This document shows positions 8,128-50,157 of a stretch of 64,000 nucleotides of DNA, one piece after another. Origin of the DNA: an uncultured Clostridium sp. (GTDB lineage Bacteria > Bacillota > Clostridia > TANB77 > CAG-508); contig USDF01000001.1 in NCBI GenBank assembly GCA_900553405.1, positions 2,567-66,566 on the forward strand, written 5' to 3'. The notes below the pieces were generated by a model. The model worked only from the letters and a program-made list of their open reading frames with translations, was not told where the DNA came from and did not search any database. A program made the translations under genes and the position numbers. Position 1 is the first letter of the stretch; each line of letters begins with the position of its first letter.

Positions 8128-8346
8128 GTAAATTGAAATATAAAAAATGAAAAATTTTGTTTCATATTATAAAAATACCTTAAATCCTGTGTTATTTAGT
8201 GTTGTTTAGTATCGTTTGACCTTTTGAAAATGAACAAAATAGCATTAAATAATATTAAACATAACTAAACGAAAAAATTAAATTTGAGACTTTTATTCGT
8301 CTTAATTAGTCTCAATAAAAAATAACATATGAAAGGAGTAAAATAA

Positions 8347-9372: not shown

Positions 9373-9409
9373 AAATAATTACAATATGAATTATAAGAGG
9401 TGAATAAAA

Positions 9410-11365: not shown

Positions 11366-11485
11366 TTGGGTAAGAATAAGGATTTTTAATAAAGGCGTTA
11401 AAATAATTATTATAAAAATAGAAAGTTGGAAACAAATTAAAGTGACCAACTTTCTATTTTTTCATATTATAGATTAGGTGGTTTT

Positions 11486-25730: not shown

Positions 25731-25746
25731 AAACTGCTGTGGTAAA
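25711..25746 (+). repeat. attL core: 36-bp direct repeat (ggttcaggaaaaaaatataaaaactgctgtggtaaa), secA 3' end
   Basis: Identical 36-mer recurs at 32251-32286. Confidence 0.85.
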
Positions 25747-25998
25747 TAACCTCGCAAACCCTTATAAAATAAGGAATTGTTAAAAATAGAAAAAATGATA
25801 AATTTGTTCACAGATGACAATTTGTCCACGATTTGTCCACATAGCATAAATAATGTGGACAGAATCGAAGAAACCCCATAAAAATCAATAAAAAATCTAC
25901 ATGGACAATTATTGTGGACATAGTTATATAAAATGTCAGCATTTGAAATGCTGGCATTTTTCCGTTTCATTAAGTTTTATAATGAAGGAGAGATAACT

Positions 25999-26466
25999 AT
26001 GGTAAGCGTAAGAAAACGTGGAAAGGTATATGAATACCGATTTGAAATTGCAACAGTTGACGGAACAAGAAAATGGATAACAAAGTCAGGGTATCCAACA
26101 AAAGCAGAGGCTTTTAAAGAAGGAGCAAAAGCCTATAACGATTTTTACTACAATGGTCAAAAGACGCAGTTAAGAGAAAATATGTCGTATGCAGATTTTT
26201 TAGATTATTGGATAGATAATTATGCAAGTTTCAATTTGCATTACTCTACTACAATATCTTATATAAACATTATTAAAAATCACGTAAAACCAAGAGTAGG
26301 ATTTTATAAATTATGGCAATTAGATACACGTCTTTTACAGGAGTTTATCAATAAAATATATGTTGAGTATGGCTTTTCAAAAAACTATATGGCGAGTATT
26401 TTAAAAGTGGTTAAAGGTTCATTAAAATATGCGTGTTACACATTAAATTATATTACAAAATTGTAA
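25999..26466 (+). pseudogene. tyrosine recombinase/integrase N-terminal fragment (arm-binding + N-terminal SAM-like domain only)
   Basis: MVSVRKRGKVYEYRFEIATVDGTRKWITKSGYPTKAEAFKEGAKAYNDFY is a Tn916/phage-integrase-like N-terminus. Stops after 155 aa; no catalytic domain follows in any frame. Confidence 0.65.
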
Positions 26467-26467
26467 T

Positions 26468-26504
26468 ATTGAGTAATATTAGAATGACGACTTATATGAT
26501 AAAA
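26468..26504 (+). promoter_or_regulatory. candidate response-regulator box (tandem GTAATATT half-sites) upstream of transglycosylase gene
   Basis: tattacaaaattgtaatattgagtaatattagaatgacgactta; near-identical copy at 29050-29093. Confidence 0.45.
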
Positions 26505-26559
26505 AATGATAATATTACTGCAATAAATTACTTTTTAGTAAAGAAGGGATTAGCATTAT

Positions 26560-27249
26560 ATGAAATTAGTTAAAAAGATTGCAATAACAATTTTATTAAT
26601 ATTTATTTGTATAGGAAGTTATTTTATTTGTAGTGGTTATCAAATGTATAAGAATGCCATAAATAAAATGCCATTAAAGGATAAAATTACAACAATTAGG
26701 CAAAAAGAAGATTATACAAAAATTGATGATATGCCTCAAATATATTTAAAAGCAGTTGTATCAGTTGAAGATCATAGATTTTACAAACATTTTGGGATAG
26801 ATGTCATTTCTATTGGAAGAGCATTTGTAAATGATATAAAAAAAATGAAATTTGTAGAGGGAGGAAGCACAATTACCCAACAACTAGCCAAGAATATCTA
26901 TTTTACACAAGATAAGAAAATAGTAAGGAAAGTTGCAGAAATTTTTATGGCATTTAGCATAGAAAGTAACTACAATAAGGATGAAATATTAGAATTATAT
27001 TTGAATACTTCATATTTTGGCAATGGATTTTATTCTGTTAAGTCAGCAAGTTTAGGTTATTTTAATAAATTACCAAAAGATATGAACGATAGTGAATCAA
27101 TTATGCTAGCAGGAATCCCAAATGCTCCGTCTTTATATAATCCAATTCAAAATAAAAATTTAGCAATTGAAAGACAGAGGCAAGTTATAAATAAAATGAT
27201 TAAATATGGTAACCTAGATAAAGTTGAAGCAGAAAAAATTATAAAATAA
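26560..27249 (+). CDS. monofunctional biosynthetic peptidoglycan transglycosylase (GT51, MtgA-like)
   Basis: N-terminal TM anchor, then GT51 motifs EDHRFYKHFGID, GGSTITQQLAKN, RKVAE...MAF, YLNTSYFG. Confidence 0.85.
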   Translation: MKLVKKIAITILLIFICIGSYFICSGYQMYKNAINKMPLKDKITTIRQKEDYTKIDDMPQIYLKAVVSVEDHRFYKHFGIDVISIGRAFVNDIKKMKFVEGGSTITQQLAKNIYFTQDKKIVRKVAEIFMAFSIESNYNKDEILELYLNTSYFGNGFYSVKSASLGYFNKLPKDMNDSESIMLAGIPNAPSLYNPIQNKNLAIERQRQVINKMIKYGNLDKVEAEKIIK

Positions 27250-27341
27250 TTATATTTAATTTTCTGAATTATTATAATTTAGAAAATTAAAGTGATATAA
27301 TATGAATAATTATAAAAGCAAATTACGAAAGGAGATAAACT

Positions 27342-28004
27342 ATGAAAAAAATATTAATTATAGAAGATGAAAAAATCATAAGAAATGAGTTAAAATCTTT
27401 GTTAGAAAACTCAGGGTATGAAGTATTAATTATAGAAAAGTTTGATAATGTTAAAGAAAATATAAAAAATATGAAATTTGATTTAATTTTAATGGATATT
27501 AATTTACCTAATAAAAATGGTGAAATTTTATTAAAAGAAATTAGAAAAGAATCTAATGTTCCTATTATTATGGTTACGAGCAGAGTAGGAGAAGTAGATG
27601 AAGTTTTATCTATATCTTATGGTGCAGACGATTATATTACTAAGCCATACAATCCAACAATCTTACTATTGAGAATACAAAATATATTTAAACGAATGGA
27701 TAATAATATGGACGACTTATTTTATGATAATATTAGTGTTAATCCACAAAAAGGAATATTGAAACAAGGCGAAAAGGTATTAGAACTGACTAAAAATGAA
27801 ATGATTATCTTTACATATCTTTTAAGTAATCGTGGTAGAATAGTAACTCGTGATGATTTAATGACAGATTTATGGAATAATAATGAATTTATAAATGACA
27901 ACGCTCTAACAGTAAATATTAGTAGATTAAGAAATAAATTACAAAATTTTGGACTTGAAAATAGGATTGAAACAAGAAAAGGACAAGGGTATAAATTATT
28001 ATGA
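27342..28004 (+). CDS. OmpR-family response regulator (BceR-like)
   Basis: Receiver domain (ILIIEDE...LMDINLP) plus winged-helix C-terminus. Confidence 0.85.
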   Translation: MKKILIIEDEKIIRNELKSLLENSGYEVLIIEKFDNVKENIKNMKFDLILMDINLPNKNGEILLKEIRKESNVPIIMVTSRVGEVDEVLSISYGADDYITKPYNPTILLLRIQNIFKRMDNNMDDLFYDNISVNPQKGILKQGEKVLELTKNEMIIFTYLLSNRGRIVTRDDLMTDLWNNNEFINDNALTVNISRLRNKLQNFGLENRIETRKGQGYKLL

Positions 28005-29017
28005 GTTTTAAAAAATATTTATTAGATAAAACAGTACAGATAACTGTGTCAATTGTTGGATTCATAATTGCTATTCTTATGTTAAACGCATTTAAAGTGG
28101 AAAATGATTTAAAAATAGCATTGACAATATTATTTTTTTTAGTTGCAACATTTAATATTATTTTTGATTATTTCAGGAAATACAAATTTTACAAAAAAAT
28201 ATTAAATACGCTTGATAAGTTAGATAAAAAATATTTAATTTTAGAAATGTTAAAGAAGCCAAACTTTTATGATGGCGAAATTTTTTATCAAATTCTTTAT
28301 GATATAAACAAGTCAATGATTGAAAATGTAAAAGAATATAATTTAAGTATTACCGATTTCAAGGAATATGTAGAAATGTGGATTCATGAAGTAAAGATTC
28401 CAGTAGCAAGTTTAACTTTATTAATTCATAATAACAGAAATATGTTTGATAAAAGATATATAGAACAAATTAGAAAGTTAGATAACTATATAGATCAAAT
28501 TTTATATTTCGTTCGAAGCGAAAATGCCGAAAAAGATTATCTTATCAAAGAAAATGAATTGCAGAAGATTATTAAAGATGTTGCTTTAAAAAACAAAGAT
28601 GACTTATTAGAAAATAAAGTTAATCTTGAAGTTGATGTTCATAATGAAAAAGTTTTAACGGATTCAAAATGGTTAGAGTTCGTATTAAATCAGATTATAA
28701 ACAATAGTATTAAATATAAAAAAAATAATAACGATCCAATAATAAAAATTAGTGTAAAAGATGAAAAAGATAAAGTATATCTAACTATTTGGGATAATGG
28801 AATAGGAATACCTAAAAACGATATAAAAAGAGTATTTGATAAATCTTTCACTGGTGAAAACGGTAGAATAATGGCAAAATCAACAGGTATGGGACTTTAT
28901 ATTGTCAAGAAATTATGCGATAAATTAGGACATAAGATAATTATTGAATCTGAAATACATAAATATACAAAAATTACAATTATCTTTTATAAAAATGATT
29001 TTTATAAAATTGATTAA
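28001..29017 (+). CDS. intramembrane-sensing histidine kinase (BceS-like)
   Basis: Two N-terminal TM helices with a minimal loop, a HisKA region (HEVKIPVAS), and HATPase_c (GIGIP...GMGLYIVKKL). Overlaps the RR gene by 4 nt. Confidence 0.8.
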   Translation: MSFKKYLLDKTVQITVSIVGFIIAILMLNAFKVENDLKIALTILFFLVATFNIIFDYFRKYKFYKKILNTLDKLDKKYLILEMLKKPNFYDGEIFYQILYDINKSMIENVKEYNLSITDFKEYVEMWIHEVKIPVASLTLLIHNNRNMFDKRYIEQIRKLDNYIDQILYFVRSENAEKDYLIKENELQKIIKDVALKNKDDLLENKVNLEVDVHNEKVLTDSKWLEFVLNQIINNSIKYKKNNNDPIIKISVKDEKDKVYLTIWDNGIGIPKNDIKRVFDKSFTGENGRIMAKSTGMGLYIVKKLCDKLGHKIIIESEIHKYTKITIIFYKNDFYKID

Positions 29018-29049
29018 AGTTTATGCAGATTTAGATACTAAAAATAAAT

Positions 29050-29093
29050 ATTACAAAATTGTAATATTCTGTAATATTAGAATAACGACTAAT
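29050..29093 (+). promoter_or_regulatory. second copy of candidate response-regulator box upstream of ABC transporter genes
   Basis: tattacaaaattgtaatattctgtaatattagaataacgactaa, 40/44 identical to the 26461-26504 copy. Confidence 0.45.
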
Positions 29094-29135
29094 CCTATCT
29101 TTTATATTACAATGTAATCAGAAAGGAGAAAGATT

Positions 29136-29903
29136 ATGGAAAATATCTTAAAAATTGATAAAATTGAAAAATATTATGGCAATAAATCTAGTCTTACAAA
29201 AGCAATTGATAACCTATCATTTGATGTTGAAAAGGGAGAATTTGTTGCAATAATGGGAGCAAGTGGCTCTGGAAAGACTACTCTTTTAAATTGTATATCT
29301 ACAATTGATAAAGTTACATCTGGACATATTTATGTAGCAGGTAATGATATCACAAAATTAAGAGGAAATAGTCTAAATAAGTTTAGAAGGGAAGAGTTAG
29401 GCTTTATATTTCAAGATTTTAATTTGCTTGATACTTTAACTGCTTATGAAAATATTGCTTTGGCACTTTCTATTCAAAATGTGAATTCAAGAGAAATTGA
29501 TACAAGAATTAAAAAAATTGCAAAAGAACTGGATATTGTTAATGTACTTAATAAATATCCATATCAAATGAGTGGAGGTCAAAAGCAAAGAGTCGCTAGT
29601 GCAAGAGCAATAATTACTAATCCAAAGTTAATTCTTGCAGATGAACCAACAGGTGCATTGGATTCAAAGTCAGCTAAAATGCTTTTAGAAAAATTTGATT
29701 ATTTGAATAAAGAATTACAAGCAACAATTCTTATGGTGACACATGATGCGTTTACTGCAAGTTATTCTTCAAGAGTCATATTTATCAAAGATGGTAAAAT
29801 TTTTAATGAAATAATTAAAGGAACAAATTCTAGAAAAGAATTTTTTGATAAAATAATAGATGTTGTAACATTACTTGGTGGTGACTTAAACGATGCTCTT
29901 TAA
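29136..29903 (+). CDS. ABC transporter ATP-binding protein (BceA-like)
   Basis: Walker A (GASGSGKTT), ABC signature (MSGGQKQRVASARA), Walker B (ILADEPTGALD). Confidence 0.9.
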   Translation: MENILKIDKIEKYYGNKSSLTKAIDNLSFDVEKGEFVAIMGASGSGKTTLLNCISTIDKVTSGHIYVAGNDITKLRGNSLNKFRREELGFIFQDFNLLDTLTAYENIALALSIQNVNSREIDTRIKKIAKELDIVNVLNKYPYQMSGGQKQRVASARAIITNPKLILADEPTGALDSKSAKMLLEKFDYLNKELQATILMVTHDAFTASYSSRVIFIKDGKIFNEIIKGTNSRKEFFDKIIDVVTLLGGDLNDAL

Positions 29904-31938
29904 GTTATCATTAAAAAATATTAGTAAGAGTATAAAGGATTATGCCATCTATTTCTTTACTCTGATACTAGGTGTTGCAATTTTTTATGTGTTCAATGCA
30001 ATAGATGATCAGTCAGTTATGATGAAGGTATCATCAACAACAGCAGAAATAATAAAACTTATGACCAATGTTCTTTCTGGTGTTAGCGTGTTTGTATCTA
30101 TAATATTAGCGTTTTTAATTGTTTATGCAAGTAGATTCTTAATAAAAAGAAGAAATAAAGAATTTGGAGTTTATTTAACGCTTGGAATGAGCAAAAAGAA
30201 AATATCCTTAATATTATTTATTGAAACATTAATAATAGGTATAGTTTCATTGGTAGTTGGTTTAGGAATAGGTTTTTTATTATCACAATTGATGAGTATT
30301 TTGGTTGCTAATATGTTTGAAGCAGATTTAACTAGATTTCAATTCGTATTTTCACCAAATGCTTGTATTAAAACTTTGATTTATTTTAGTATTATGTATT
30401 TTGTAGTTATGATATTTAATACTATAAATATTAGTAAATGTAAATTGATAGATTTAATGCATTCTAACAAAAAATCTGAAAAAATAAAATTAAAAAATCC
30501 ATTGTTTTGTACAATAGTGTTTATTATTTCTTGTATAGCATTAGGATTTGCTTATTATCAGGTTACTGGTGGTATTGAGAAAATGACTTATGCAAATAGT
30601 ATTTTTGTTCCTATAGGAATAGGTGCTGTTTCAACTTTCTTTGTGTTTTGGTCTTTATCGGGATTGCTTTTAAAAATATTTATAAGTATGAAGAACACTT
30701 ATTATAAAGGGTTAAATAGTTTCACCCTTAGACAGTTTTCAAGTAAAATAAATACTATGACTTTTTCGATGACAATAATATGTTTGATGTTATTTATAAC
30801 GATTTGCGTGTTATCGAGTGCAATGTCTATGAAAATATCTATGACAAATAATTTGAAAAAACTGGCTCCAGCAGATGTTCAAATTGGTAAGTTTATAAAT
30901 GTAACTAATTATGAGTATTATTCTGAAAAACAAATAGAAGATTCAAAAATCTCAATATATGATACACTTGAAAATTTAGGCTATGATGTAGATAACAAAC
31001 TTAAAGATATAGTAAAACTTGATGTTTATAACTTTGATAATATTGACTTAAAAACCAGTATTGGCTCTTACTATGATATTGCAAAGGATGAATATCCTTT
31101 AATGCCATACAATAAGAAGGAAAGTATTGTAAAGATAAGTGATTACAACAAAATTGCAAAATTGTTTGGACTAAAAGAATATACATTAAATGATGATGAA
31201 TATTTTATTGTTGCTAATTATTCAGAATATGTAGAATTCAGGAATGAGGGACTTAAGGTAGATACAATACTTAATATAAATGAAAAGAAATTAAAACCAA
31301 AATATGATAGTTGTGTAGAAGGTTTTATTGCAATGAATTCAACATATTCAAATCTGGGAATTTTTGTTGTTCCTGATAATGCAGTAAATGATTCAATGAA
31401 AAAATATGAATATTTAACTGCTAATTATAATGTTACAGATATAAATGAGAAAAATCTTTCGGAAAAAGAGTTAAGTGAAATTTGCAAAGAAAATTCTAAT
31501 AATACTGTTATTGATTTTGATTCTAAAATGACAATTAAAGAAAATAGTATTGGACTAGGTGCAATGGTTACCTTTATAGGATTATACTTAGGTATTATAT
31601 TCTTAATTTCTTGTGCTGCAATTCTAGCACTTAAAGAATTATCGGAATCAAGTGATAATGTAGAAAAGTTTAATATGCTAAGAAAAATAGGCGTAGATGA
31701 AAAAATGATTAATAAAGCATTGTTTAGACAAATTGGTATATTTTTTATGTTTCCGTTATTAGTTGCAATTATACATTCTATATTTGGAATTAAATTTTGT
31801 AATTATTTGTTAAGTGCCTTTGGAGCCGCTAATTTAGTATCATCAATAATTGGTGTTGCAATATTTATTGTTGCGATTTATGGAGGATACTTCTTAGTAA
31901 CTTATATTTGCAGTAAAAATATAATTAAGGAAAAATAA
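29893..31938 (+). CDS. ABC transporter permease, FtsX family with large extracellular domain (BceB-like, 10 TM)
   Basis: 681 aa. Two FtsX-type 4-TM modules separated by a ~230-aa extracellular domain. Overlaps the ATPase gene. Confidence 0.85.
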   Translation: MLFKLSLKNISKSIKDYAIYFFTLILGVAIFYVFNAIDDQSVMMKVSSTTAEIIKLMTNVLSGVSVFVSIILAFLIVYASRFLIKRRNKEFGVYLTLGMSKKKISLILFIETLIIGIVSLVVGLGIGFLLSQLMSILVANMFEADLTRFQFVFSPNACIKTLIYFSIMYFVVMIFNTINISKCKLIDLMHSNKKSEKIKLKNPLFCTIVFIISCIALGFAYYQVTGGIEKMTYANSIFVPIGIGAVSTFFVFWSLSGLLLKIFISMKNTYYKGLNSFTLRQFSSKINTMTFSMTIICLMLFITICVLSSAMSMKISMTNNLKKLAPADVQIGKFINVTNYEYYSEKQIEDSKISIYDTLENLGYDVDNKLKDIVKLDVYNFDNIDLKTSIGSYYDIAKDEYPLMPYNKKESIVKISDYNKIAKLFGLKEYTLNDDEYFIVANYSEYVEFRNEGLKVDTILNINEKKLKPKYDSCVEGFIAMNSTYSNLGIFVVPDNAVNDSMKKYEYLTANYNVTDINEKNLSEKELSEICKENSNNTVIDFDSKMTIKENSIGLGAMVTFIGLYLGIIFLISCAAILALKELSESSDNVEKFNMLRKIGVDEKMINKALFRQIGIFFMFPLLVAIIHSIFGIKFCNYLLSAFGAANLVSSIIGVAIFIVAIYGGYFLVTYICSKNIIKEK

Positions 31939-32250
31939 TATATCTGATAAAACGATATCTCAGTAGTTTAACTAATCTTAATATATAGTATATAATTATG
32001 AACAGAAAAAAACACAAATGTATGATTTTCCAATTCGCACAATTTATTGAACTTTGAAATATGGTATAATGATGGCAGTGAACGGATGTGGACGGTGTCC
32101 ACAATTTGTCCACAGTAGAGAAATATTTATAATATAAATAGTACAGATAATACAAATAATATAGATGTTACCTAGTCTGGAAAAGCCTGAAATACAGGTA
32201 ATATTATAAATACAAATAATACAGATAATATGGGAGTACAAAGTTCTTGT

Positions 32251-32286
32251 GGTTCAGGAAAAAAATATAAAAACTGCTGTGGTAAA
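32251..32286 (+). repeat. attR core: second copy of the 36-bp secA 3'-end repeat; continues into native secA tail (...[16 protein letters not shown])
   Basis: Identical to 25711-25746. Downstream sequence encodes the native SecA CCGK terminus and stop at 32296. Confidence 0.85.
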
Positions 32287-32382
32287 AATCAGTAATATCA
32301 ACCTATCTTGTAACAAAAAAAGATACTTAAAGCAACAGAAAATAAAGATTAAGATAGTTAAATTTTATCTAAAAAGGAAGGA

Positions 32383-32411
32383 AACCAGAGATTGTTAATC
32401 TCTGGTTTTTT
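32383..32411 (+). terminator. rho-independent terminator (native secA terminator)
   Basis: aaccagagattgttaatctctggtt + TTTTT. Confidence 0.85.
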
Positions 32412-32460
32412 GCCCCTATGTTAGCTCTCTTTATTATTGTAGAAAAAGTGTCAAAAATGA

Positions 32461-32489
32461 TTGACAAATGTTACAAAACCCATTATAAT
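32461..32489 (+). promoter_or_regulatory. consensus sigma-A promoter TTGACA-17-TATAAT
   Basis: TTGACA 32461-66, TATAAT 32484-89. Confidence 0.6.
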
Positions 32490-32555
32490 ACTTATGTTAA
32501 CTGTAAAAAATGCCCATGAAAAATAATAGGCACCACAAACGAAAGGAGAATTTTA

Positions 32556-32931
32556 TGCCAGAAGATTTTAGACATGAGCAAATTAAAGAATTAATACAAA
32601 ATAGTAATTCTTACTGCTTTAGTAGATAACTTAGCGGAAGGAAAAGAACAGGCTTTAAAAGTAATAAAAGCTTGGAAACCATTTCCGGATATACTGTTTT
32701 ATTGCAAAATTGATGCAGTAACAGCATATGAAAGAAATAAGCTGAGAGCAAATCATGATGAATTTGAAGATTTAGAATCATTAAAGTATTATGAAGAAAA
32801 ATACGAAGAAGCAGTTAAATTTTTGAGAGAAAACACTAACCTGAGAATTGTTGAACTGGATACTTCAGATTCGATGCAGGAAAGTGTAAACAAAGTAAAG
32901 GAGACAGTAGAACATGAAGGACTTAATTAAA
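32556..32931 (+). pseudogene. nucleoside/nucleotide kinase-like gene remnant (no P-loop; two frames)
   Basis: A 24-aa ORF, then in the +1 frame ...LAEGKEQALKVIKAWKPFPDILFYCKIDAVTAYERNKLRANHDEF..., which resembles the C-terminal lid region of dNK/dTMP-kinase-like P-loop kinases. No Walker A anywhere. Confidence 0.45.
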
Positions 32932-33729
32932 AAATATCAGTATTTAAAGGAAATTGACTTCTCAAAATTAGAAGTCATTGCAGATGGAAAATCTAAAACA
33001 ATATATGCTTTGGATGATGAAACTGCAATTATGTTTTACAAGCCACATCTTAGAAGTGTAACCAATAAACGTGAAGGTGTTATCGAAGGCACAGATGTGT
33101 ACCGGATGTATGCAACAATGTTTTTCTTAAATCTTATGGAGGAAAATAATATTCCAACAGAAAGAGTTGTAGACAGAATCTTCAACATCAATGGAAAATT
33201 GGCAATTTTAATAAAACGTTGCCAACCAATTCCACTTGAATGGACTAGAAGATATTATGCGGCAGGCTCAATTGTGAGACTTTTCCCGATTTTCGTTAAA
33301 GATGGACAGAAATTTGATCCACCACTTAATAAGTATGACGCAAAAATTGATGTCAGCTTAACAGGTGGAATTGATGATCCGACAATGAACGAAAGCTATA
33401 TTACAGGACTTCATCTTATGACTAAGGAACAATTTGATGAAGCAGACAAGATGCTTTCAAAAATCGGAGATATTTTAAGAACTGTCTACGAAGATGCCGG
33501 AATCAAGCTGGTTGACTTGAAAATGGAGTTTGGAATTCTGAATGAGAGAATCATATTAATAGACGAACTCAGTCAGGACTGTATGAGAGCAAATGATATG
33601 GTAACGGGAGAAACTCTTACTAAAGATGCTTACAGGCAGTGGAAAACTCCAGAAGAAGTATTATCAACTTATGAAACATTCTTAAAAAGAATGTGCCCAA
33701 AATACAAAGATTTAGTGGTAACCTTATAA
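32914..33729 (+). CDS. SAICAR synthetase family paralog (PurC-like, divergent)
   Basis: DPTMNESYITGLHLMTKEQFDEA...AGIKLVDLKMEFGILNERIILIDELSQDCMRAND aligns with E. coli PurC (DPMVNESY...GLILVDFKLEFGL...LGDEFSPDGSRLWD). The region has higher GC than its surroundings. Confidence 0.75.
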   Translation: MKDLIKKYQYLKEIDFSKLEVIADGKSKTIYALDDETAIMFYKPHLRSVTNKREGVIEGTDVYRMYATMFFLNLMEENNIPTERVVDRIFNINGKLAILIKRCQPIPLEWTRRYYAAGSIVRLFPIFVKDGQKFDPPLNKYDAKIDVSLTGGIDDPTMNESYITGLHLMTKEQFDEADKMLSKIGDILRTVYEDAGIKLVDLKMEFGILNERIILIDELSQDCMRANDMVTGETLTKDAYRQWKTPEEVLSTYETFLKRMCPKYKDLVVTL

Positions 33730-33775
33730 CGAAATATTTTAATAAAAATCAAAGTTTCATAGAAAGGACAAAATC

Positions 33776-35071
33776 ATGAAAGTAGACGTTATTGTAGGTG
33801 GTTTATATGGAGATGAAGAAAAGGGCAAGATTGTGAGCTACTTGGGAAATGAAAACAATTATGATTATGTTTTCCGGGTTAATGCTTCAACGAATGCAAG
33901 TCATTGTGTGCAGTTAGAAGGAAGTGATGACATCATTGTTACAAAGCAGCTTCCATCAGTTTTCTTTAATGATGATGTGAAGTTTGTTGTAGGACCGGGC
34001 GCAGTTCTAAACTTGAAAGCCTTAAAGGAAGAAGTTTATTCAAGGCCGGATGATTTAATGAATAAGGTAAGCATTGCATCAACAATTTGCTTATTAATTG
34101 AGCCGTATATCGAAAAAACGGTAGGTTCTACAATTTCAAAATCGTTAGGAAGCACCAATCAGGGAACTGGAGTTGCAGTAGTTGCGCGGACAAGAAGACA
34201 TTGTCTGAGGTTGTATGATGTTGCAAATTGCGTAAATGGAAAATTAACAGTTGAAGAATTAGTAGAAAAGATTATTTTTACTTCTAATGAAACTGATTTT
34301 GTATATTTTTCAAAGAAAGAAAAAGCCTATTTTTCTAAAATTGCTGAGGATTTAATTAATGAATACAAGGCAATTGTTGAGAAAATTGGAGAATTTTCTC
34401 TTGAATACACGCAGTTCTTAAACGCTATTCCGGAAGACAGCAAAATCTTGATTGAAGGCTGTAATGGGATTATGTTAGACAATCTTCATGGATTAAATCC
34501 ATACACAACAAGCGCATCAACAGCAGTAAATGCATTAATGAATGGAGCAAACATTTCTCCATACCATTTGAATGATACATATATCATTTGTACAGGTTAC
34601 TTTTGCTGCCTCAATAAAAGACCATTTTTAACAGAGATGGAAGAGGAAGATGCAGAGAAAATCTATATTAACAATGATGAAGTAGATAATGCAGAAGGTA
34701 TGAAGAGAAGAATTGGGTGGTTTGATTTACCAACATTAAAAAAAGCACTTACAGGGCATGAAGGTGCAAAGCTGGTCATCAACAAGCTTGATATTATGAA
34801 AGACTTGGAAAAAGTAAAGATTTGCACAGAATACCGCCTTTCAGATGGAAGAACGGTAGAATATATGCCGGACAACTTAATGGAATTACAAGGAGCAGTA
34901 CCAGTCTACCGTGAATTTGATGGCTGGGGAGATATCTCTCAAGCAACTTGCAAGGACGAATTACCAGAAGCCTTATTGGAATTTTTATCATATGTGGAAA
35001 AAGAAACACATTTTAAAATTGCTTTTGTAGGAAATGGTAGAGGACAGAATTCACTCATAAAGATGTTATAA
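33776..35071 (+). CDS. adenylosuccinate synthetase family paralog (PurA-like, divergent active-site motifs)
   Basis: GDEEKGKIV (PurA GDEGKGKIV); KLDIMKDLEKVKICTEYRLSDGRTVEY (PurA [25 protein letters not shown]); MKRRIGWFD (PurA TGRRRRTGWLD). The GGHNAGH and GTTGRGIGP motifs are replaced by NASTNASH and GSTNQGTGV. Confidence 0.75.
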   Translation: MKVDVIVGGLYGDEEKGKIVSYLGNENNYDYVFRVNASTNASHCVQLEGSDDIIVTKQLPSVFFNDDVKFVVGPGAVLNLKALKEEVYSRPDDLMNKVSIASTICLLIEPYIEKTVGSTISKSLGSTNQGTGVAVVARTRRHCLRLYDVANCVNGKLTVEELVEKIIFTSNETDFVYFSKKEKAYFSKIAEDLINEYKAIVEKIGEFSLEYTQFLNAIPEDSKILIEGCNGIMLDNLHGLNPYTTSASTAVNALMNGANISPYHLNDTYIICTGYFCCLNKRPFLTEMEEEDAEKIYINNDEVDNAEGMKRRIGWFDLPTLKKALTGHEGAKLVINKLDIMKDLEKVKICTEYRLSDGRTVEYMPDNLMELQGAVPVYREFDGWGDISQATCKDELPEALLEFLSYVEKETHFKIAFVGNGRGQNSLIKML

Positions 35072-35082
35072 TAACTATAAAA

Positions 35083-35122
35083 AACAAACAGACTCAAATT
35101 GGGTCTGTTTGTTTTTGTTTTG
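35083..35122 (+). terminator. rho-independent terminator
   Basis: aaacaaacagactcaaattgggtctgtttgttttt. Confidence 0.8.
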
Positions 35123-35193
35123 AAAATTAAGATTGTCTATTTTTTCATATTTCTTCTTTATAAAAATTTCTAAATAATTTTTTATAAAATCAC

Positions 35194-35260
35194 TTGACAA
35201 TTGAATATACATTCAACTATAATAAATTTACAGTTGAGTATCAATTCAATTATTGTTGAA
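35194..35260 (+). promoter_or_regulatory. cad operon promoter with ArsR/CadC-type palindromic operators
   Basis: TTGACA (35194-99), spacer containing the palindrome TTGAATATACATTCAA, then TATAAT (35218-23). A second inverted repeat attcaa-ttattg-ttgaat lies downstream. Confidence 0.6.
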
Positions 35261-35297
35261 TATAATATAAAAAATACAAAAGAAAGAAGGGAAAAAC

Positions 35298-35657
35298 ATG
35301 TCAAAAAATGAGTTCATATGTGATTGTAATGTTATTCATCAAGATGTAGTTGCAAGCACAAAAGAAAAGATGACAGATGAATATTTATTTAGTAAACTTG
35401 CAGAATTTTTTAAAATACTAGGAGATATAACAAGAGCTAAAATATTATTTGCATTAGATCAAAATGAAATGTGTGTATGTGATATAGCAAACGTGCTTGG
35501 AATGACCAAATCATCAATATCACATCAGCTTGGAACATTAAGAAGATCTGGAATAGTAAAATGTAGAAAACAAGGAAAAGAAGTATATTATATGTTAGAT
35601 GATGAACATGTAAGTAGATTATTCGAGTTAGGAATAGAGCATATAGAACATAAATAA
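35298..35657 (+). CDS. cadC: ArsR/SmtB family metal-sensing repressor (CadC-like)
   Basis: HTH region plus metal-binding Cys (CDC N-terminal; MCVCDIA alpha-3 site). Confidence 0.8.
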   Translation: MSKNEFICDCNVIHQDVVASTKEKMTDEYLFSKLAEFFKILGDITRAKILFALDQNEMCVCDIANVLGMTKSSISHQLGTLRRSGIVKCRKQGKEVYYMLDDEHVSRLFELGIEHIEHK

Positions 35658-35723
35658 AAGCTATTTATGAGTTAAAAAGTAGTCAGTAAGTTTAAAAGTA
35701 AAAAATGAAAGGAAGGATTTATT

Positions 35724-35945
35724 ATGAAAAAAGTATTAAAATTAGAAGGATTAGATTGCGCAAATTGTGCAGCAGAATTAGAAAATAGAATAAACAAAGT
35801 AGAAGGAGTAGAAAACGTATCTGTTAGTTTCATGACACAAAGATTAACTTTTGAATGTAATGAAGAAATATTAGAAGAAAAATTAAAAGAAATTAAGAAA
35901 ATAATAAAGAAAGAAGAACCAGACGTTGAAGTTGAAGAAATCTAA
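35724..35945 (+). CDS. heavy-metal-associated (HMA) domain metallochaperone
   Basis: GLDCANCAAELE = MxCxxC-type HMA motif. 73 aa. Confidence 0.75.
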   Translation: MKKVLKLEGLDCANCAAELENRINKVEGVENVSVSFMTQRLTFECNEEILEEKLKEIKKIIKKEEPDVEVEEI

Positions 35946-36052
35946 CTGAAATAAATGTTATTAGATATTTGTTTAACAAATGATTAAAATTCAAAAAGAA
36001 AGAGTGTGTATTTTTAATTTATATAATACACATTAAATGAGGAATTTATAGA

Positions 36053-37891
36053 ATGAAAAAAAGAGCAAGAAAAATTATAATAGCATTAGTTTTGTTTGCA
36101 ATTGCATTATTAATACCATTTTCATATGAATGGATAAATAATGTGATATTTATTGCAAGTTATTTAATAGTTGGTTTAGAAATAGTATTAAAAGCAATAA
36201 GAAATATAACAAGAGGAAAAGTATTTGATGAAAATTTTCTTATGGCAATAGCAACTATAGGAGCATTTGCAGTAGGCGAATTTCCAGAAGCAGCAACAGT
36301 TATGATACTTTATCAAATAGGCGAATTGTTCCAAAGTTATGCAGTAGATAAATCAAGAAAATCTATATCAAGTTTAATGGATATTAGACCAGATTATACA
36401 AATGTAAAAAGAGAAAATGAAGTTTTAAAAGTTTCACCAGAAGAAGTAAAAATAGGAGAACTAATCGTAGTAAAACCAGGAGAAAAAATTCCATTAGATG
36501 GAGTTATCGAAGAAGGAAAATCTATGTTAGATACTTCAAGTTTAACAGGGGAATCTATGCCACAAGACGTAAATATAGGAGACAACGTTTTAAGTGGATG
36601 TATAAATAAAAGTGGATTATTAACAATAAAAGTAACAAAAGAATTTGGAGAGTCTACAGTAAGCAAAATACTAGATTTAGTAGAAAATGCAAGTAGTAAA
36701 AAATCAAAATCTGAAAACTTTATTACTAAATTCGCTAAATATTATACTCCAGCTGTAGTAATAATAGCAGTAATTTTAGCTGTTGTACCACCAATTATTA
36801 TAAAAGATGCCGTATTTACAGATTGGTTATATAGAGCTTTAACATTTTTAGTAGTATCATGCCCATGTGCACTTGTAATATCAATACCACTAGGATTCTT
36901 TGGAGGAATAGGTGGAGCTTCTAAAAAAGGAATATTAGTAAAAGGAAGTAATTACCTAGAAGCTTTAGCACAAACAGAAATAGTTGTATTTGATAAAACA
37001 GGTACACTAACAGAGGGAATTTTTGAAGTACAAAAAATAGAAACAGTAGATATAAAAAAAGAAGAACTTTTAGAATTAGCAGCATATGCAGAAAATCATT
37101 CAAACCATCCAATATCTTTATCTGTAAAAAATGCATATAAAAATAAAATAGATATGAAAAAAATTACAGAAACAGAGGAAATAGCAGGACTAGGAGTTAA
37201 AGCAATAATAGACGGAAAACAAGTGCTAGTTGGAAACGATAAATTAATGGAACAAGCAAAAATTAGTTATGAAAAATCAACAGATATAGGAACTATATTA
37301 TATGTTGCAATAGATAACAAATTTGCAGGATATATCGTAATTGCAGATAAAATAAAGAATGATTCTAAAAAAACAATAGAAATTTTAAAAGGAAATAACA
37401 TTAAAAAAACAGTTATGCTTACAGGAGACAAAAAACAAGTAGGCGAGCATGTAGCTGATATTTTAGGATTAGACGAAGTTTATACAGAACTACTACCAGA
37501 CGGAAAAGTAAAAAAAGTAGAAGAATTATTAAAACAAAAAAGCGAAAAAGGAAAACTTGTATTTGTTGGTGATGGAATAAATGATGCACCAGTATTAGCT
37601 CTAGCAGATATAGGAATTGCAATGGGGGGACTTGGTTCAGATGCTGCAATAGAGGCTGCAGATGTTGTAATAATGACAGACGAACCATCTAAAATAGGAA
37701 ATGCAATACAAATTTCTAAAAAAACAATGAGAATAGTTCGTGAAAATATAATTTTTTCATTAGTAGTTAAAATAGCCGTATTAATTTTAAGTGCATGTGG
37801 ATTATCTACAATGTGGGAAGCAGTATTCGCAGATGTAGGAGTATCTATTATAGCAATATTAAATTCATTAAGAGTATTAAGAAATAAATAA
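36053..37891 (+). CDS. cadA: P1B-type heavy-metal (Cd/Zn) translocating ATPase
   Basis: CPC motif (VSCPCALVIS), DKTGTLT phosphorylation site, GDGINDAP hinge. Confidence 0.9.
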   Translation: MKKRARKIIIALVLFAIALLIPFSYEWINNVIFIASYLIVGLEIVLKAIRNITRGKVFDENFLMAIATIGAFAVGEFPEAATVMILYQIGELFQSYAVDKSRKSISSLMDIRPDYTNVKRENEVLKVSPEEVKIGELIVVKPGEKIPLDGVIEEGKSMLDTSSLTGESMPQDVNIGDNVLSGCINKSGLLTIKVTKEFGESTVSKILDLVENASSKKSKSENFITKFAKYYTPAVVIIAVILAVVPPIIIKDAVFTDWLYRALTFLVVSCPCALVISIPLGFFGGIGGASKKGILVKGSNYLEALAQTEIVVFDKTGTLTEGIFEVQKIETVDIKKEELLELAAYAENHSNHPISLSVKNAYKNKIDMKKITETEEIAGLGVKAIIDGKQVLVGNDKLMEQAKISYEKSTDIGTILYVAIDNKFAGYIVIADKIKNDSKKTIEILKGNNIKKTVMLTGDKKQVGEHVADILGLDEVYTELLPDGKVKKVEELLKQKSEKGKLVFVGDGINDAPVLALADIGIAMGGLGSDAAIEAADVVIMTDEPSKIGNAIQISKKTMRIVRENIIFSLVVKIAVLILSACGLSTMWEAVFADVGVSIIAILNSLRVLRNK

Positions 37892-37932
37892 AGGACATTT
37901 GGGAACGGGTCACTTTTGTCCTATACATAAAA
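37892..37932 (+). repeat. copy C of dispersed 3'-intergenic hairpin repeat
   Basis: aggacatttgggaacgggtcacttttgtcctatacataaaa, immediately after the cadA stop. Confidence 0.7.
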
Positions 37933-38052
37933 TAGACGAATATAACTTCGCCTATTTTAGTGTTTATTGTAAACTATTAGAGATGGACCATTTTAGTTTA
38001 GTAAATTTATTATATTTTGCCCTCAAAACTAAAACGCCCCGTCACTAATAGT

Positions 38053-38658
38053 TTAGTTTAATAAATTTGCAATTAAGTCAATTACTGTGTTAGTCATTAC
38101 CGTATAGTCTAGTTCACTGTGTTTATGATATACAATTTCATGGCATAAGTCATCAATCAAATTAATTGCAATGTGAACTTTTTCATACAAGTTAGCTGTA
38201 TCAAATCCACTATTTGCTAGTATATTATAAAGTGTTTTTGTCATATACATTTCATGTTCTTGAAAGAAACTAGCTATTTCTTTATCTGAATGAACCATAG
38301 CTGTAATTTCTTCGTGAGCTGATTGTGAAAGTTTATGATTTTCTACAAATTTATCTATCATTTCTTTTAATATTTCTTTTATATTAGCTTTAGAAACAGT
38401 TTTGCCCTCAGTTATAGTAAGCATAGGGTAGAAAATATCACCTGCGTATCTTTTAATTCCTTCAAGTAATATATCATGTTTATCATTAAAATATTGATAC
38501 ACAATACCAGTAGAAACACCAGCAGCTTTTGCTATTTGTGCTGTGTTTGTATTGTAGTATCCTTTATTACATATAAGCTCAAAACCAGCTTCTATAATTT
38601 TTTCTTTTTTCTCAATAGAACGTTTTTGTATAGGTTCTCTAATATCGTTAGATGTCAT
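38053..38658 (-). CDS. TetR/AcrR family transcriptional regulator
   Basis: N-terminal HTH (YYNTNTAQIAKAAGVSTGIVYQYF). Divergent from the ABC transporter genes. Confidence 0.85.
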   Translation of the reverse strand: MTSNDIREPIQKRSIEKKEKIIEAGFELICNKGYYNTNTAQIAKAAGVSTGIVYQYFNDKHDILLEGIKRYAGDIFYPMLTITEGKTVSKANIKEILKEMIDKFVENHKLSQSAHEEITAMVHSDKEIASFFQEHEMYMTKTLYNILANSGFDTANLYEKVHIAINLIDDLCHEIVYHKHSELDYTVMTNTVIDLIANLLN

Positions 38659-38908
38659 GTTATCAGTCCCTTCTTTAAAAATGATATAGCTAAATTATAA
38701 GTATTAAGCAATATCAGTATATTTAATATACATTAAAAAAGTATGTATAAAACTAAGTTCTCTAAAATTAAATTAACTATATTATAAAGGCAACAAAATA
38801 AAAAGTCAAGAAATATGAAAAATATTTCATATTCTATTGACTTTTGAAATAATAATATTTATAATGTCTAACAGAATATGAAATAAATTTCAAGTTAAGG
38901 AGGAGACT

Positions 38909-39619
38909 ATGGAGAAAATAGTTGAAATAAAAAATGTAAGTAAAATTTACAAAACAGGAGAAAAAGAATTTAAAGCACTAGATAACATTGATTTATCTAT
39001 AAACAAAGGAGAATTTGTTGTAATACTTGGACCATCAGGAGCAGGAAAATCAACATTATTAAATTTAATAGGTGGAATGGATACACCAACAAATGGAAGC
39101 ATAAAAATTGATGGAGAAGATATCTCAAAATATAATGAGAACAAATTGAGCGAGTATAGAGCAGAGAATATCGGATTTATCTTTCAATTTTACAACATAT
39201 TGCCAACACTTACTGTATTGGAAAATGTTGAATTAATTAAAGATGTTGTAAAAAACGGAAACGATAGCAAAGAAGCTATAAAAGCTGTTGGATTAGAAAA
39301 TCACATGAATAAATTTCCAAACCAATTATCTGGAGGTGAACAACAAAGAGTTTCTATAGCAAGAGCTATAGCTAAAAATCCAAAATTACTATTATGCGAT
39401 GAACCAACAGGTGCACTAGATTCAAAAACAGGTGTCGAGGTTTTAAAACTATTACGCAAACAATGTGATGGAAACAATGGAGCAAATACAGTAATTATAG
39501 TAACTCACAATAGCTTATTTGCAGATATTGCAGACACAGTAATAAGAGTAAAAAACGGAAAAATAGAAAGTGTAACTGCAAATGAAAATCCTAAAAAGAT
39601 TGACGAGGTGAAATGGTAA
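38909..39619 (+). CDS. ABC transporter ATP-binding protein (MacB/YknY-like)
   Basis: Walker A GPSGAGKST, signature LSGGEQQRVSIARA, Walker B LLLCDEPTGALD. Confidence 0.9.
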   Translation: MEKIVEIKNVSKIYKTGEKEFKALDNIDLSINKGEFVVILGPSGAGKSTLLNLIGGMDTPTNGSIKIDGEDISKYNENKLSEYRAENIGFIFQFYNILPTLTVLENVELIKDVVKNGNDSKEAIKAVGLENHMNKFPNQLSGGEQQRVSIARAIAKNPKLLLCDEPTGALDSKTGVEVLKLLRKQCDGNNGANTVIIVTHNSLFADIADTVIRVKNGKIESVTANENPKKIDEVKW

Positions 39620-42036
39620 TGGCTAAATTAAACAAAAAAATATTAAGAGATATAAAACAAAACAAAATGCAATTTTTTAATGTTTTTATTATGATATTTT
39701 TAGGAGTATTTGTTTTTGCAGGAGTACATTCATATATGGATGGTATGCAAATAAGTGGCGATAATTACTATGAATCAAACAATTTACAAGACTTATGGCT
39801 AACAGGTGAAAACTTTAATAAAGAAGATTTAGACAAAGTAAAAAATATCGAAAATGTTAAAAACGCAGAAAGATTATTAAGCATAAGAACAGACTTAGAA
39901 AATGAAAAAGAAAAAGACGTACAACTAGAAACAATCTTTATTGAATCAAATGAAATATCAAAAATGTACATTGCAGATGGAGAAGAATTTTCTAAAGAAA
40001 AAGATGGTGTATGGTTTGATAGCTATTTAGCAAAATATTTAGACCTAAAAGTTGGAGATGAAATTACTTTTAAATATAAAGACTACACAATGACAGAAAA
40101 AATAAGAGGTCTAGTAAACACACCAGACCATGTGTATTTTGTAAAAGATGAAACAGCAATTTTCCCAACACATAAGGATTATGGTTACATATATCTTTCT
40201 ATAAATGAATTTCCAAAACAATATATTTATGATGAGATAAAAAATAAAATTGTGGCAGAAAATACTATAATGGAAAACATGAAAGATAGCATAACAAATG
40301 AAACAATAGAAAAAATGATTCCAGACTTTAACATAGAAGACTATTATATATTTAATCAAGTAATTGTAGATGTAGATGATACAAGCAAAATAGAAGAAAC
40401 AAAAAGAAATATAGAAAATGATATTAAAGCTGCAATAGCAGTTACAGATAGAGAAGCAAGCGCATCTTGCGAAACATATAATTCAGAAATAGAAGAGGGA
40501 GCAACATATTCAGAAGTATTTACATTTTTATTCTTATTTATAGCAATATTATCTGTTGTAACAACAATGAACAGATTTGTAAAAAAACAAAGAACACAAA
40601 TAGGAACATTAAAAGCATTAGGATTTAAAAATAGCAAAATAATAAGACACTATGTAGGCTATGGATTTTATATAAGTATAGCAGCTTCAATACTTGCACT
40701 ATTAGTTGGAAACTTTGGATTAGGCAAATTCTTCATGAACATGGAAATGTCATATTTTGAAGTTCCAGTTTATAGTACAATATTATTACCTACAGTATAT
40801 ATACTTGCAGTATTTGTAGTAATAATAGTAACTATTGCAACATATTTCTCTTGCAGAAAAATCTTAAAAGAACCAGCAGTAGAAGCATTAAGAATAGAAA
40901 TACCAAAAGTAAAGAAAACAAATTTTGACTTAACAACAAAAGGAATATTCAAAAAAGCCTCAATTTCTACAAGATGGAATTTAAGAGATATAGGAAGAAA
41001 TAAAGGAAGAAGCATAATGGGTATAGTAGGAATAATAGGCTGTACAATGCTTTTAGTATGTGCATTTGGCTTACTAGACACAATGAATTCTTACTTAGAC
41101 TGGCAATTTGACAAAATAAATAATTTCGAATACAAACTAGGATTATCAAGTAATTATACTGATGAAGAGCTAGAAGATGCAAAAAACAAATACGGAAATG
41201 CTACAAGTCAAACTCTAGCAATAGAAGTAAAAAATGGAGATAAAAAAGAAACAAATACTTTAACAATAAATGACGCAAAAGATTATTTAAAATATACAGA
41301 CCATAACAAAAACTATATAGACTTAAAAGATGATGGAATATATATTACAGAAAAATTATCAGAAAAATACGACTTAAAAGTTGGAGACGAAATATCTTGG
41401 CATGCATTTGGAAACAATAATTGGTATACATGTAAAATAGTAGGAATAAATCGTGACCCACAAAATCAAAATTTAAATATGACTAGAAAATATTATGAGT
41501 CTTTAGGACTTGAATATAAAGCAGATTCGTTATATACTAATTATGACTTAAGTGACACAAAAACAATCGCAGGAGTAGAAACAATACAAAGCATTTCAAA
41601 CCTAAGAGAAGGTATAGAAAGCATGTTAGAAACTACAAAAACAATGGTTGTAATATTAATAGTAGTGTCAGTAATTTTAGCATATGTAATTATTTACAAT
41701 TTAGGAATACTATCATTTGCAGAAAAACAATATCAATTTGCAACATTAAAAGTATTAGGATTTAAAGATAAGCAAATAAAGAAAATATTTGTAAAACAAA
41801 ATATATGGCTTTCTATAGTAGGTATTCTAGCAGGATTACCACTAGGATATACAATGATAGACTATATATTTAAAGCAGCACTTGGAGAAAACTATGACTT
41901 TCCAGCAATGATAAGTGTACCTTCATATTTGTATGCAGCAATAGGAAGCTTTGTAGTAGCACTACTTGTAAATAAAACACTATCTAGAAAAGTTAAAACA
42001 ATTGATATGGTAAGTAGTTTAAAAGGAAACGAATAA
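39619..42036 (+). CDS. ABC transporter permease, FtsX/MacB-type with two 4-TM modules and large extracellular domains
   Basis: ~805 aa, duplicated FtsX architecture. The ORF-track start at 39613 overlaps the upstream stop, so ATG 39619 is also possible. Confidence 0.8.
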   Translation: MAKLNKKILRDIKQNKMQFFNVFIMIFLGVFVFAGVHSYMDGMQISGDNYYESNNLQDLWLTGENFNKEDLDKVKNIENVKNAERLLSIRTDLENEKEKDVQLETIFIESNEISKMYIADGEEFSKEKDGVWFDSYLAKYLDLKVGDEITFKYKDYTMTEKIRGLVNTPDHVYFVKDETAIFPTHKDYGYIYLSINEFPKQYIYDEIKNKIVAENTIMENMKDSITNETIEKMIPDFNIEDYYIFNQVIVDVDDTSKIEETKRNIENDIKAAIAVTDREASASCETYNSEIEEGATYSEVFTFLFLFIAILSVVTTMNRFVKKQRTQIGTLKALGFKNSKIIRHYVGYGFYISIAASILALLVGNFGLGKFFMNMEMSYFEVPVYSTILLPTVYILAVFVVIIVTIATYFSCRKILKEPAVEALRIEIPKVKKTNFDLTTKGIFKKASISTRWNLRDIGRNKGRSIMGIVGIIGCTMLLVCAFGLLDTMNSYLDWQFDKINNFEYKLGLSSNYTDEELEDAKNKYGNATSQTLAIEVKNGDKKETNTLTINDAKDYLKYTDHNKNYIDLKDDGIYITEKLSEKYDLKVGDEISWHAFGNNNWYTCKIVGINRDPQNQNLNMTRKYYESLGLEYKADSLYTNYDLSDTKTIAGVETIQSISNLREGIESMLETTKTMVVILIVVSVILAYVIIYNLGILSFAEKQYQFATLKVLGFKDKQIKKIFVKQNIWLSIVGILAGLPLGYTMIDYIFKAALGENYDFPAMISVPSYLYAAIGSFVVALLVNKTLSRKVKTIDMVSSLKGNE

Positions 42037-50115: not shown

Positions 50116-50157
50116 CGGACATTTGGGGACGGGTCACTTTTGTCCTTTACATAAAAA
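50116..50157 (+). repeat. copy D of dispersed 3'-intergenic hairpin repeat (closest to consensus)
   Basis: cggacatttggggacgggtcacttttgtcctttacataaaaa, directly after the sufB stop. Confidence 0.7.

Follow-up and report, generated by a model that had tools for sequence, protein, structure and literature searches.

A deletion in the genome of an uncultured Clostridium sp. has left behind, with near certainty, two genes of an operon that is intact in other members of the species. The remnant lies in a 64-kb stretch of contig USDF01000001.1 (the window; coordinates are positions within it) and codes for distant relatives of PurC (phosphoribosylaminoimidazole-succinocarboxamide, SAICAR, synthetase) and PurA (adenylosuccinate synthetase, AdSS). 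In the intact operon the PurC-like gene stands together with a short-chain dehydrogenase/reductase (SDR) and a HisG homologue, and by analogy with known gene clusters we estimate at roughly 60% the probability that this cassette performs ring-expansion chemistry of the pentostatin/coformycin type. The PurA-like protein is a distinct branch of the AdSS family, neither PurZ nor housekeeping PurA.

The deletion is seen by comparison with three conspecific metagenome contigs (L021-L023). Their PurA-like protein differs from that of the window at two residues only (G15 and V209), and the genes for ArsR, HMA, P-type ATPase, TetR and ABC transporter farther downstream are common to all. Upstream, they carry an operon in the order DHH, CoaD-like, SDR, FmdA::HisG::kinase, PurC-like, PurA-like, in which the DHH/DHHA1 protein has 333 aa, the CoaD-like protein 164 aa, the SDR 231 aa and the FmdA_AmdA::HisG::thymidylate-kinase-like (Tmk-like) fusion 735 aa. 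By blastn, L021 1-421 corresponds to window 32188-32608 and L021 4831-13296 to window 32606-41071, both at 99.5-99.8% identity; the window is without 4,409 bp (L021 422-4830), and the junction is a 3-bp AAT microhomology. The lost segment comprised the DHH gene from codon ~18, the whole CoaD-like and SDR genes and codons 1 to ~627 of the fusion. What remains of the fusion (32606-32930) has no start codon and no P-loop, no open reading frame (ORF) is listed there, and it is 65% identical to residues 627-735 of L008_4 (tblastn). Given the 4,409-bp gap, the promoter, the ribosome-binding site (RBS) and the peptide MPEDFRHEQIKELIQNSN, encoded from the ATG at 32556, are those of the DHH/DHHA1 phosphoesterase gene, whose 5' end this frame represents. 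The deletion is unlikely to be an assembly artefact, because the junction sequence is not a repeat. The exact proteins of the window occur only in two records of one 68-kb contig, and among 23 contigs for the near-identical PurA-like protein P0001 the deletion was present in none of four distinct contexts (three with the full operon and one that ends at the contig edge). The features of the remnant locus are the following:

32382-32408, no strand assigned: terminator hairpin of the preceding unit, with a 12-bp stem, directly 5' of the promoter and within the 421 bp common to L021.
32461-32489, + strand: sigma-70-type promoter TTGACA-17-TATAAT, 12/12 match; the DHH/DHHA1 promoter in the intact strains.
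32556-32630, + strand: ORF of 24 codons, the DHH/DHHA1 5' stub (~17 DHH codons, with RBS AAAGGAG), running on out of frame through the kinase remnant to a stop.
32606-32608, no strand assigned: deletion junction with the AAT microhomology, from the blastn coordinates and the junction sequences compared with L021.
32606-32930, + strand: 3' remnant of the Tmk-like kinase of the FmdA::HisG::kinase fusion, last ~105 codons and stop; a pseudogene fragment.
32914-33729, + strand: PurC-like gene, 271 aa, intact; Pfam SAICAR_synt 121 bits.
33776-35071, + strand: PurA-like gene, 431 aa, ORF intact; Pfam Adenylsucc_synt 270 bits; G15E and V209L private to this copy.
35080-35123, + strand: intrinsic terminator, a hairpin with a 17-bp stem, a 3-nt loop and a U-rich tract behind it; free energy -21.7 kcal/mol, z -6.2.

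Most of the layout proposed in a first-pass annotation, made from the sequence alone, stands: both ORFs are there, on the + strand and intact, the consensus promoter matches at 12 of 12 positions, the strong terminator is the 17-bp hairpin with its U-tract, and the suspicion of a relic is borne out by the deletion relative to L021. The kinase remnant that it had spread over two frames is confined to 32606-32930, the other frame being the DHH 5' end, and an intact kinase, whose presence elsewhere it had suggested checking, exists in the intact operons within the FmdA::HisG::Tmk-like fusion. The remnant operon is now placed next to the DHH promoter; the total of promoter-like sites in the region is not raised (18, against 17.4 in shuffles). 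The two genes have a GC content of 0.346 vs a window mean of 0.274, and their GC at third codon positions (GC3), 0.30 and 0.29, gives the top two values of the 42 window ORFs (mean 0.16, sd 0.047). The block that had been called foreign does stand apart from the window in composition, although at 34-35% GC with a local peak of 38.5%, and not at the 38-40% first given. The deletion, the damage to the P-loop and the pentostatin/coformycin-type signature had escaped that annotation. A search of 31800-35400 against Rfam (E<=1) for a riboswitch or leader RNA returned chance-level matches only, and no second purA or purC was found within the window.

Since HisG, FmdA and SDR are gone and the P-loop of the PurA-like protein is altered, the pathway is most likely dead in the window strain, with its two ORFs in decay. 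All four nucleotide differences from L021 in the PurC-like and PurA-like genes are non-synonymous, and they produce I75M and I111T in the former and G15E and V209L in the latter. G15E turns the P-loop GDEGKGK into GDEEKGK, at a position where 102 of the 103 family sequences with a residue, and all near relatives, have G. The GDEEKGK that had been read as a retained motif is a private lesion, the family and all AdSS having GDEGKGK. In another allele of the PurA-like protein (P0008, 95% identical, four member sequences) the P-loop is damaged by G12V and K16T, suggesting that the gene is decaying in more than one lineage of the species group.

The gene content of the intact operons is what points to the pentostatin and coformycin clusters. 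The fusion protein joins an FmdA/AmdA amidohydrolase, HisG and a dTMP-kinase-like P-loop domain, and its HisG domain is over the TIGR00070 cut-off (93.5 vs 75.75; Pfam HisG 82 bits). An SDR is present in L021-L025, and that of L009 gives 130 bits with adh_short. Clusters L004, L014 and L015 add a HisE-like protein and a HisA::HisI fusion, and HisB, HisC, HisD, HisF and HisH were found in none of the loci examined. On this absence a true histidine or ATP-recycling operon was rejected, and the presence of HisE-like and HisA::HisI without the others indicates a pathway ending at phosphoribulosyl-formimino-aminoimidazole carboxamide ribonucleotide (PRFAR). In pentostatin-type clusters PenA (HisG), PenB (SDR) and PenC (SAICAR synthetase homologue) are the key enzymes and the probes used for mining (PMC12648386; bioRxiv 10.1101/728154), and the adechlorin (ade) cluster recruits a HisA homologue, AdeK (PMC13055916). 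As in the pen, cof and ade clusters, the intact relatives of our locus have homologues of HisG, SDR and SAICAR synthetase in one operon, and some of them have recruited histidine-pathway enzymes (HisE-like, HisA::HisI) as in ade. CofB reportedly cyclizes the HisA product (PRFAR substrate) to 8-ketocoformycin-5'-phosphate, which CofA reduces, in work of Ren and co-workers from 2020. In the window HisG, SDR and FmdA have been deleted and the SAICAR-synthetase homologue kept (32914-33729). A difference from pen/cof is the fusion of HisG to a Tmk-like kinase and often also to the FmdA/AmdA-type amidohydrolase. Fusions of this kind have a parallel in Cordyceps, where Cns3 is reported (Xia and co-workers, 2017) to be a nucleoside kinase-HisG fusion in the cordycepin/pentostatin cluster; the likeness lies in a kinase-HisG fusion at a pentostatin-linked locus, whereas the domain order is reversed, the kinase here is Tmk-like, the host is bacterial or archaeal, and no Cns1/Cns2 equivalents were identified. 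The first-pass annotation had denied that this was a purine-biosynthesis operon, rightly; the partners in the intact operon are HisG, SDR and FmdA and not pur genes. Its proposal of a nucleotide-modification, antimetabolite-resistance or toxin-biosynthesis module is supported in so far as a module for the biosynthesis of a nucleoside analogue or antimetabolite is the best reading.

The PurC-like protein is below the TIGR00081 purC equivalog cut-off (85.9 vs 189.9), and across 68 members its family invariantly keeps K11, K13, R94, AAGS, D175, E179, D191, R199, K211 and R215, that is, the ATP and ribotide-binding core, including the GK.K motif. In contrast, the 30-50 loop of PurC, DD.TA.NG..K ... 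KG..N, is invariantly replaced by P-H-.-R-S-.-T-..-R ... T-D-..-R. Such a pattern would be expected if the enzyme bound a ribotide like AICAR (aminoimidazole carboxamide ribonucleotide) but carried out another chemistry. The description of both proteins as divergent paralogs is well founded, as both are far under the equivalog cut-offs and altered at substrate positions.

SDR, FmdA, HisG::Tmk-like kinase and PurC-like gene occur together in Clostridia (L008-L012, L114, L139 and L152), and the same cassette was found in a metagenome-assembled genome (MAG) of an archaeon (L149) and in environmental contigs (L150, L151). In L149-L152 it comes without a PurA-like gene. The Bacilli, in turn, have operons with a PurA-like gene and no HisG/PurC-like cassette, in which the partners are PnuC, a nucleoside-deoxyribosyltransferase-like protein, a small Tmk-like kinase, a Zn-phosphoesterase-like protein, an NrtR-like regulator and Ham1. 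A solitary PurA-like gene with no cassette remnants nearby was found in L013, and a strict dependence of the PurA-like protein on the cassette was rejected on this ground. The term "paralog pair" used before does not survive these two one-sided distributions. The order of PurC-like, PurA-like and kinase genes does recur in the conspecific operons, as had been proposed for checking, but not as an obligate pair. A canonical PurA is encoded directly beside the PurA-like gene in L017, L019 and L146 (527-571 bits, over the cut-off; that of L017 scores 527 with TIGR00184 and 571 with NF002223), and in the same operon in L112 and L116. The small kinase of the Bacilli is homologous to the HisG-fused kinase domain (hhalign 96.5%), and in four clusters PurA-like and kinase are fused. 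Because the kinase is fused both to PurA-like proteins and to HisG, the gene structures suggest consecutive steps, with PurA-like acting before the kinase and the kinase possibly before HisG.

Some further observations were made in these surveys. L016 (8787-9971) and L019 code for an extra protein of 394 aa with a CofE-like (F420-0:glutamate ligase) N-terminus (E 6e-12, far under the cut-off), and in some Bacilli its gene sits between the deoxyribosyltransferase-like and PurA-like genes. The CoaD-like gene 5' of the SDR gene was set aside as probably the housekeeping coaD, since it is barely over the equivalog cut-off and not kept in L008, L010 and L011. A motif scan of metagenomes gave 39 matches, 11 of them true members of the PurA-like family. 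One phage-like contig (L028, ENA ERZ15185467 NODE_330, 7669-11606), with homing endonucleases and PHROG families, has a gene row of HisG, Ham1, PurA-like (43% identity), a PurC-like protein of weak similarity (28%) and a HAD_SAK_2 phosphatase. In IMG/VR the PurA-like family was found neither by protein, nor by family alignment, nor by a scan for the motif RVNASTNASH, the short matches there being canonical PurA auxiliary genes and not PurZ, and by tblastn the only matches in INPHARED (<=29% identity) were canonical PurA or PurZ. A phage origin of the clade was rejected on the basis of these scans.

The PurA-like clade comprises more than 100 clusters at >=52% identity and a separate group at 41-46% (protein search), and the window protein is ~27% identical to E. 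coli PurA. It scores 245.4 against a cut-off of 395.55 (TIGR00184) and 240.2 against 402 (NF002223) with the NCBIfam purA equivalogs, and 85.9 bits against a cut-off of 300 with the PurZ model NF038379. The AlphaFold2 model (predicted local distance difference test 90.3) has template modelling (TM) scores of 0.85-0.90 to full-length AdSS structures and of 0.61-0.63 to the PurZ/PurZ0 structures (7odx, 6fko, 7vf6). Residues were surveyed in 116 clusters (106 close and 10 distant members) in the numbering of E. coli AdSS, the sequence of which was validated against the alignment and the residue list. D13, K16, N38, H41, T129, R143, S240, R305, K331 and D333 are kept; Q34N, T128S, G130N, R131Q, I133T, A223C, Q224N, V273L and G298D are invariant changes, and G40S, G274N, T300A, T301E and R303M are nearly so. 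We take D13/H41 to be the catalytic pair and K331/D333 the GTP-specific residues of AdSS, Q224 to contact the 6-oxo group of inosine monophosphate (IMP), and V273, T300, T301 and R303 to hold the aspartate, R303 also touching the 2'-OH. The PurA-like protein resembles canonical PurA (EC 6.3.4.4) in fold, length, P-loop, D13/H41, R143 and K331/D333, and differs from it in the pocket, in its sub-cut-off scores and in coexisting with true PurA; that canonical PurA adjoins the PurA-like gene in some Bacilli argues that the clade is not housekeeping PurA. In its aspartate pocket the arginine is gone and two acidic residues (D298, E301) are gained, a change that speaks for another amine donor and probably for another nucleotide as well.

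PurZ and PurZ0 are likewise AdSS-family paralogs with a changed substrate specificity, and the first-pass annotation had drawn its analogy from them. PurZ is, however, short (~350-365 aa) and uses (d)ATP, whereas the PurA-like clade is full-length and of the GTP type, keeping D13 and K331/D333, and comes without DatZ/MazZ partners (L028 has Ham1 but no DatZ). The PurZ of Ghobesvirus (gp50) has S13 and F331 and keeps Q224 and T301, unlike the clade. What the two have in common is T128S, G274N and the loss of R303, a weak hint that the substrate may have a 2'-deoxy or otherwise altered sugar. The profile and structure comparison recommended in the same annotation goes against the analogy: the protein falls in neither the PurA nor the PurZ model (86 bits vs 300 for the latter), and its fold is nearer to AdSS. 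The loop given there as replaced, NASTNASH, has indeed changed, yet N38 and H41 within it are kept.

A PurA homologue (FocO/ForA) also accompanies homologues of PenA, PenB and PenC in one locus in the formycin A/coformycin supercluster (for/foc). There, the AdSS homologue tailors a nucleotide analogue in the last step by converting an oxo into an amino group (bioRxiv 10.1101/728154), and coformycin shields the companion product from deamination, a case of the protector-protege concept (PMC12648386). Our loci differ in that C-nucleoside genes are absent, as are homologues of PurB and PurH; the aspartate pocket is remodelled, which makes the aspartate/PurB route doubtful, and the PurA-like gene is dispensable for the cassette.

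If the cassette is of the pentostatin/coformycin type, the HisG domain would phosphoribosylate (d)ATP, and HisE, HisI and HisA activities, cluster-encoded in some relatives and housekeeping elsewhere, would carry the product to PRFAR. The PurC-like protein would then close the 1,3-diazepine ring as a cyclase of the CofB/PenC type; reduction of the 8-keto group would fall to the SDR, and release of the nucleoside to a phosphoesterase. The PurA-like protein may be a separable add-on, which with GTP would activate the oxo group of a hypoxanthine-type nucleotide (maybe 2'-deoxy or ring-expanded) and swap it for a non-aspartate amine. Acting in series with the Tmk-like kinase, it could either feed an adenine-type (deoxy)nucleotide to HisG or tailor a companion adenosine analogue. 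This assignment of a GTP-dependent oxo-to-amine enzyme with a non-aspartate donor is weaker than that of the cassette.

Several points weigh against this picture. The cassette is known here from its genes, and its likeness to pen/cof is drawn from gene families. The role of the PurA-like protein is read from residues, fusions and neighbours only, and its occurrence in operons without HisG or a PurC-like gene shows that it does not need the cassette. The deletion is known from a single MAG contig. The cassette is carried by gut Clostridia, an archaeon MAG and environmental contigs, whereas the known clusters are from Actinomycetota and fungi. Finally, every instance of the cassette includes the FmdA-like amidohydrolase and the Tmk-like kinase, and neither has a counterpart in pen/cof, for which reason the product may differ from coformycin or pentostatin.

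Alternatively, the PurA-like protein and the Tmk-like kinase might serve in salvage or supply of (deoxy)adenylate, turning dIMP/IMP-type nucleotides into an adenine-type nucleoside monophosphate and then into the diphosphate, which we consider unlikely. Its substrates would be imported nucleosides or (d)ITP hydrolysed by Ham1; the route would need no ribonucleotide reductase and possibly no PurB, and in Clostridia it would feed (d)ATP to HisG. The Bacilli operons with PnuC, deoxyribosyltransferase-like protein, kinase, Zn-phosphoesterase-like protein, NrtR-like regulator and Ham1 are in favor of it, together with the canonical PurA in the same operon in L017, L019 and L146, the PurA-like::kinase and HisG::kinase fusions, which fit a linear chain, and the changes T128S, G274N and R303 loss common to the deoxynucleotide-specific PurZ. 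However, a change of sugar alone does not account for D298, E301 and the loss of R303, Q224N and Q34N lie near the reacting C6 and point to an altered base or nucleophile, and no nucleoside kinase was clearly identified. Such salvage overlaps with the supply branch of the pathway outlined above and does not exclude it. As for a PurZ-like modification of DNA bases, in which the PurA-like protein would succinylate dGMP or another dNMP for a non-canonical base of phage or host DNA, the phage-like L028 with its HisG, Ham1, PurA-like (43%), PurC-like (28%) and HAD genes would be in keeping with it, Ham1 could act like MazZ as an NTP pyrophosphatase, and the kinase fusion would yield the NDP. It is nevertheless very improbable given the 86 bits against a cut-off of 300, the D13 and K331/D333 that are kept here (S13 and F331 in PurZ), the changes at Q224 and T301 (kept in PurZ), the TM scores of 0.61-0.63 vs 0.85-0.90 to AdSS, the failure to find family members in IMG/VR and INPHARED, and the predominance of chromosomal operons, equipped with regulators and transporters, among the loci.

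Antibiotic clusters often contain a duplicate of the target, and the PurA-like protein might be a back-up AdSS that still makes adenylosuccinate from IMP and aspartate but escapes an inhibitor that the cluster produces. Its conserved catalytic and GTP residues and the coexisting canonical PurA are compatible with this self-resistance. We hold it to be highly improbable, since the residues that hold the aspartate in E. coli AdSS (T300, T301, R303 and V273, from the Honzatko/Fromm structures) have without exception been exchanged and two acidic ones added, coformycin-type products inhibit deaminases and not AdSS, and the gene is present in many operons without biosynthetic genes. There is scarcely any room left for the simplest explanation, that these are the ordinary but divergent housekeeping purA and purC of an AT-rich Clostridium: the Pfam family matches are strong and the 64-kb window has no second copy of either gene, but both proteins are far under the equivalog cut-offs, the substitutions at substrate-contacting positions are family-wide, the operon partners are HisG, SDR and FmdA instead of pur genes, a canonical PurA (570 bits) adjoins in relatives, GC3 is twice that of the genome, and the window strain tolerates both the deletion and the P-loop mutation.

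The surroundings of the locus have rearrangements and repeats of their own. A perfect direct repeat of 36 bp (25711-25746 and 32251-32286) duplicates the 3' end of secA, which codes for the C-terminal zinc-finger motif. Between the repeats, a 6.5-kb block (25747-32242) carries a 177-aa ORF, a transglycosylase-like gene, a response regulator, a SapS-like histidine kinase and a BceAB-type ABC transporter. As secA of L023 continues directly into the sequence found at window 32287, the block can be recognized as an insertion at the point where secA ends. The window secA (23001-25730) has a 1-nt insertion relative to L023 at ~25695-25730, and an altered C-terminus without the last two cysteines of the zinc tail. 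Within the block, a 46-nt direct repeat (91% identical; 26450-26495 and 29048-29093) contains the palindrome ATATTACAAAATTGTAATAT; its two copies precede the transglycosylase-like gene and the ABC transporter, respectively, and resemble a pair of binding sites for the adjacent two-component regulator. Just 5' of the duplicated secA tail, the intergenic segment 32122-32230 has three overlapping or nearby copies (77-84% identical) of an AT-rich 31-nt motif, AATATTTATAATATAAATAGTACAGATAATA. A sequence of 45 bp that follows the P-type ATPase gene (37888-37932) recurs at 50112-50156 (91-93%), after the gene ending at 50115, and may represent either a terminator common to both places or a small repeat element.

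Pentostatin-type pathways have been described in actinomycetes and fungi only, and are overlooked by standard cluster finders (PMC12648386). We found no paper on a Firmicutes cluster of this type or on the PurA-like clade; the NARP3 phage NAD work, in which PnuC is the common feature, is unrelated. The locus brings together a pentostatin-type signature in new taxa, extra domains and a new AdSS clade. The copy in the window is broken and probably inactive, and its value is that of a pointer to the intact operons and to the family. It leads, on the one hand, to a compact and conserved cassette, in which the three-enzyme signature is joined by two unexplained domains (FmdA and the Tmk-like kinase), and on the other hand to a clade of the AdSS family with a systematically rebuilt substrate pocket. 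A bolder proposal, which we regard as rather unlikely, is that the PurA-like protein would be a new GTP-dependent ligase or aminase acting on an 8-ketocoformycin-type or 2'-modified hypoxanthine nucleotide, with a donor other than aspartate and no PurB, and that together with the cassette it would form a "deaminase inhibitor plus protected adenosine analogue" system in anaerobic gut Firmicutes, some archaea and at least one phage. Such an inhibitor-plus-analogue system, if true, could serve in microbial competition or to counter deaminase-based antiphage defence. If the predicted chemistry is true, the gut microbiome would be a source of adenosine-deaminase inhibitors or adenosine analogues, and a textbook enzyme family would have a new reaction.

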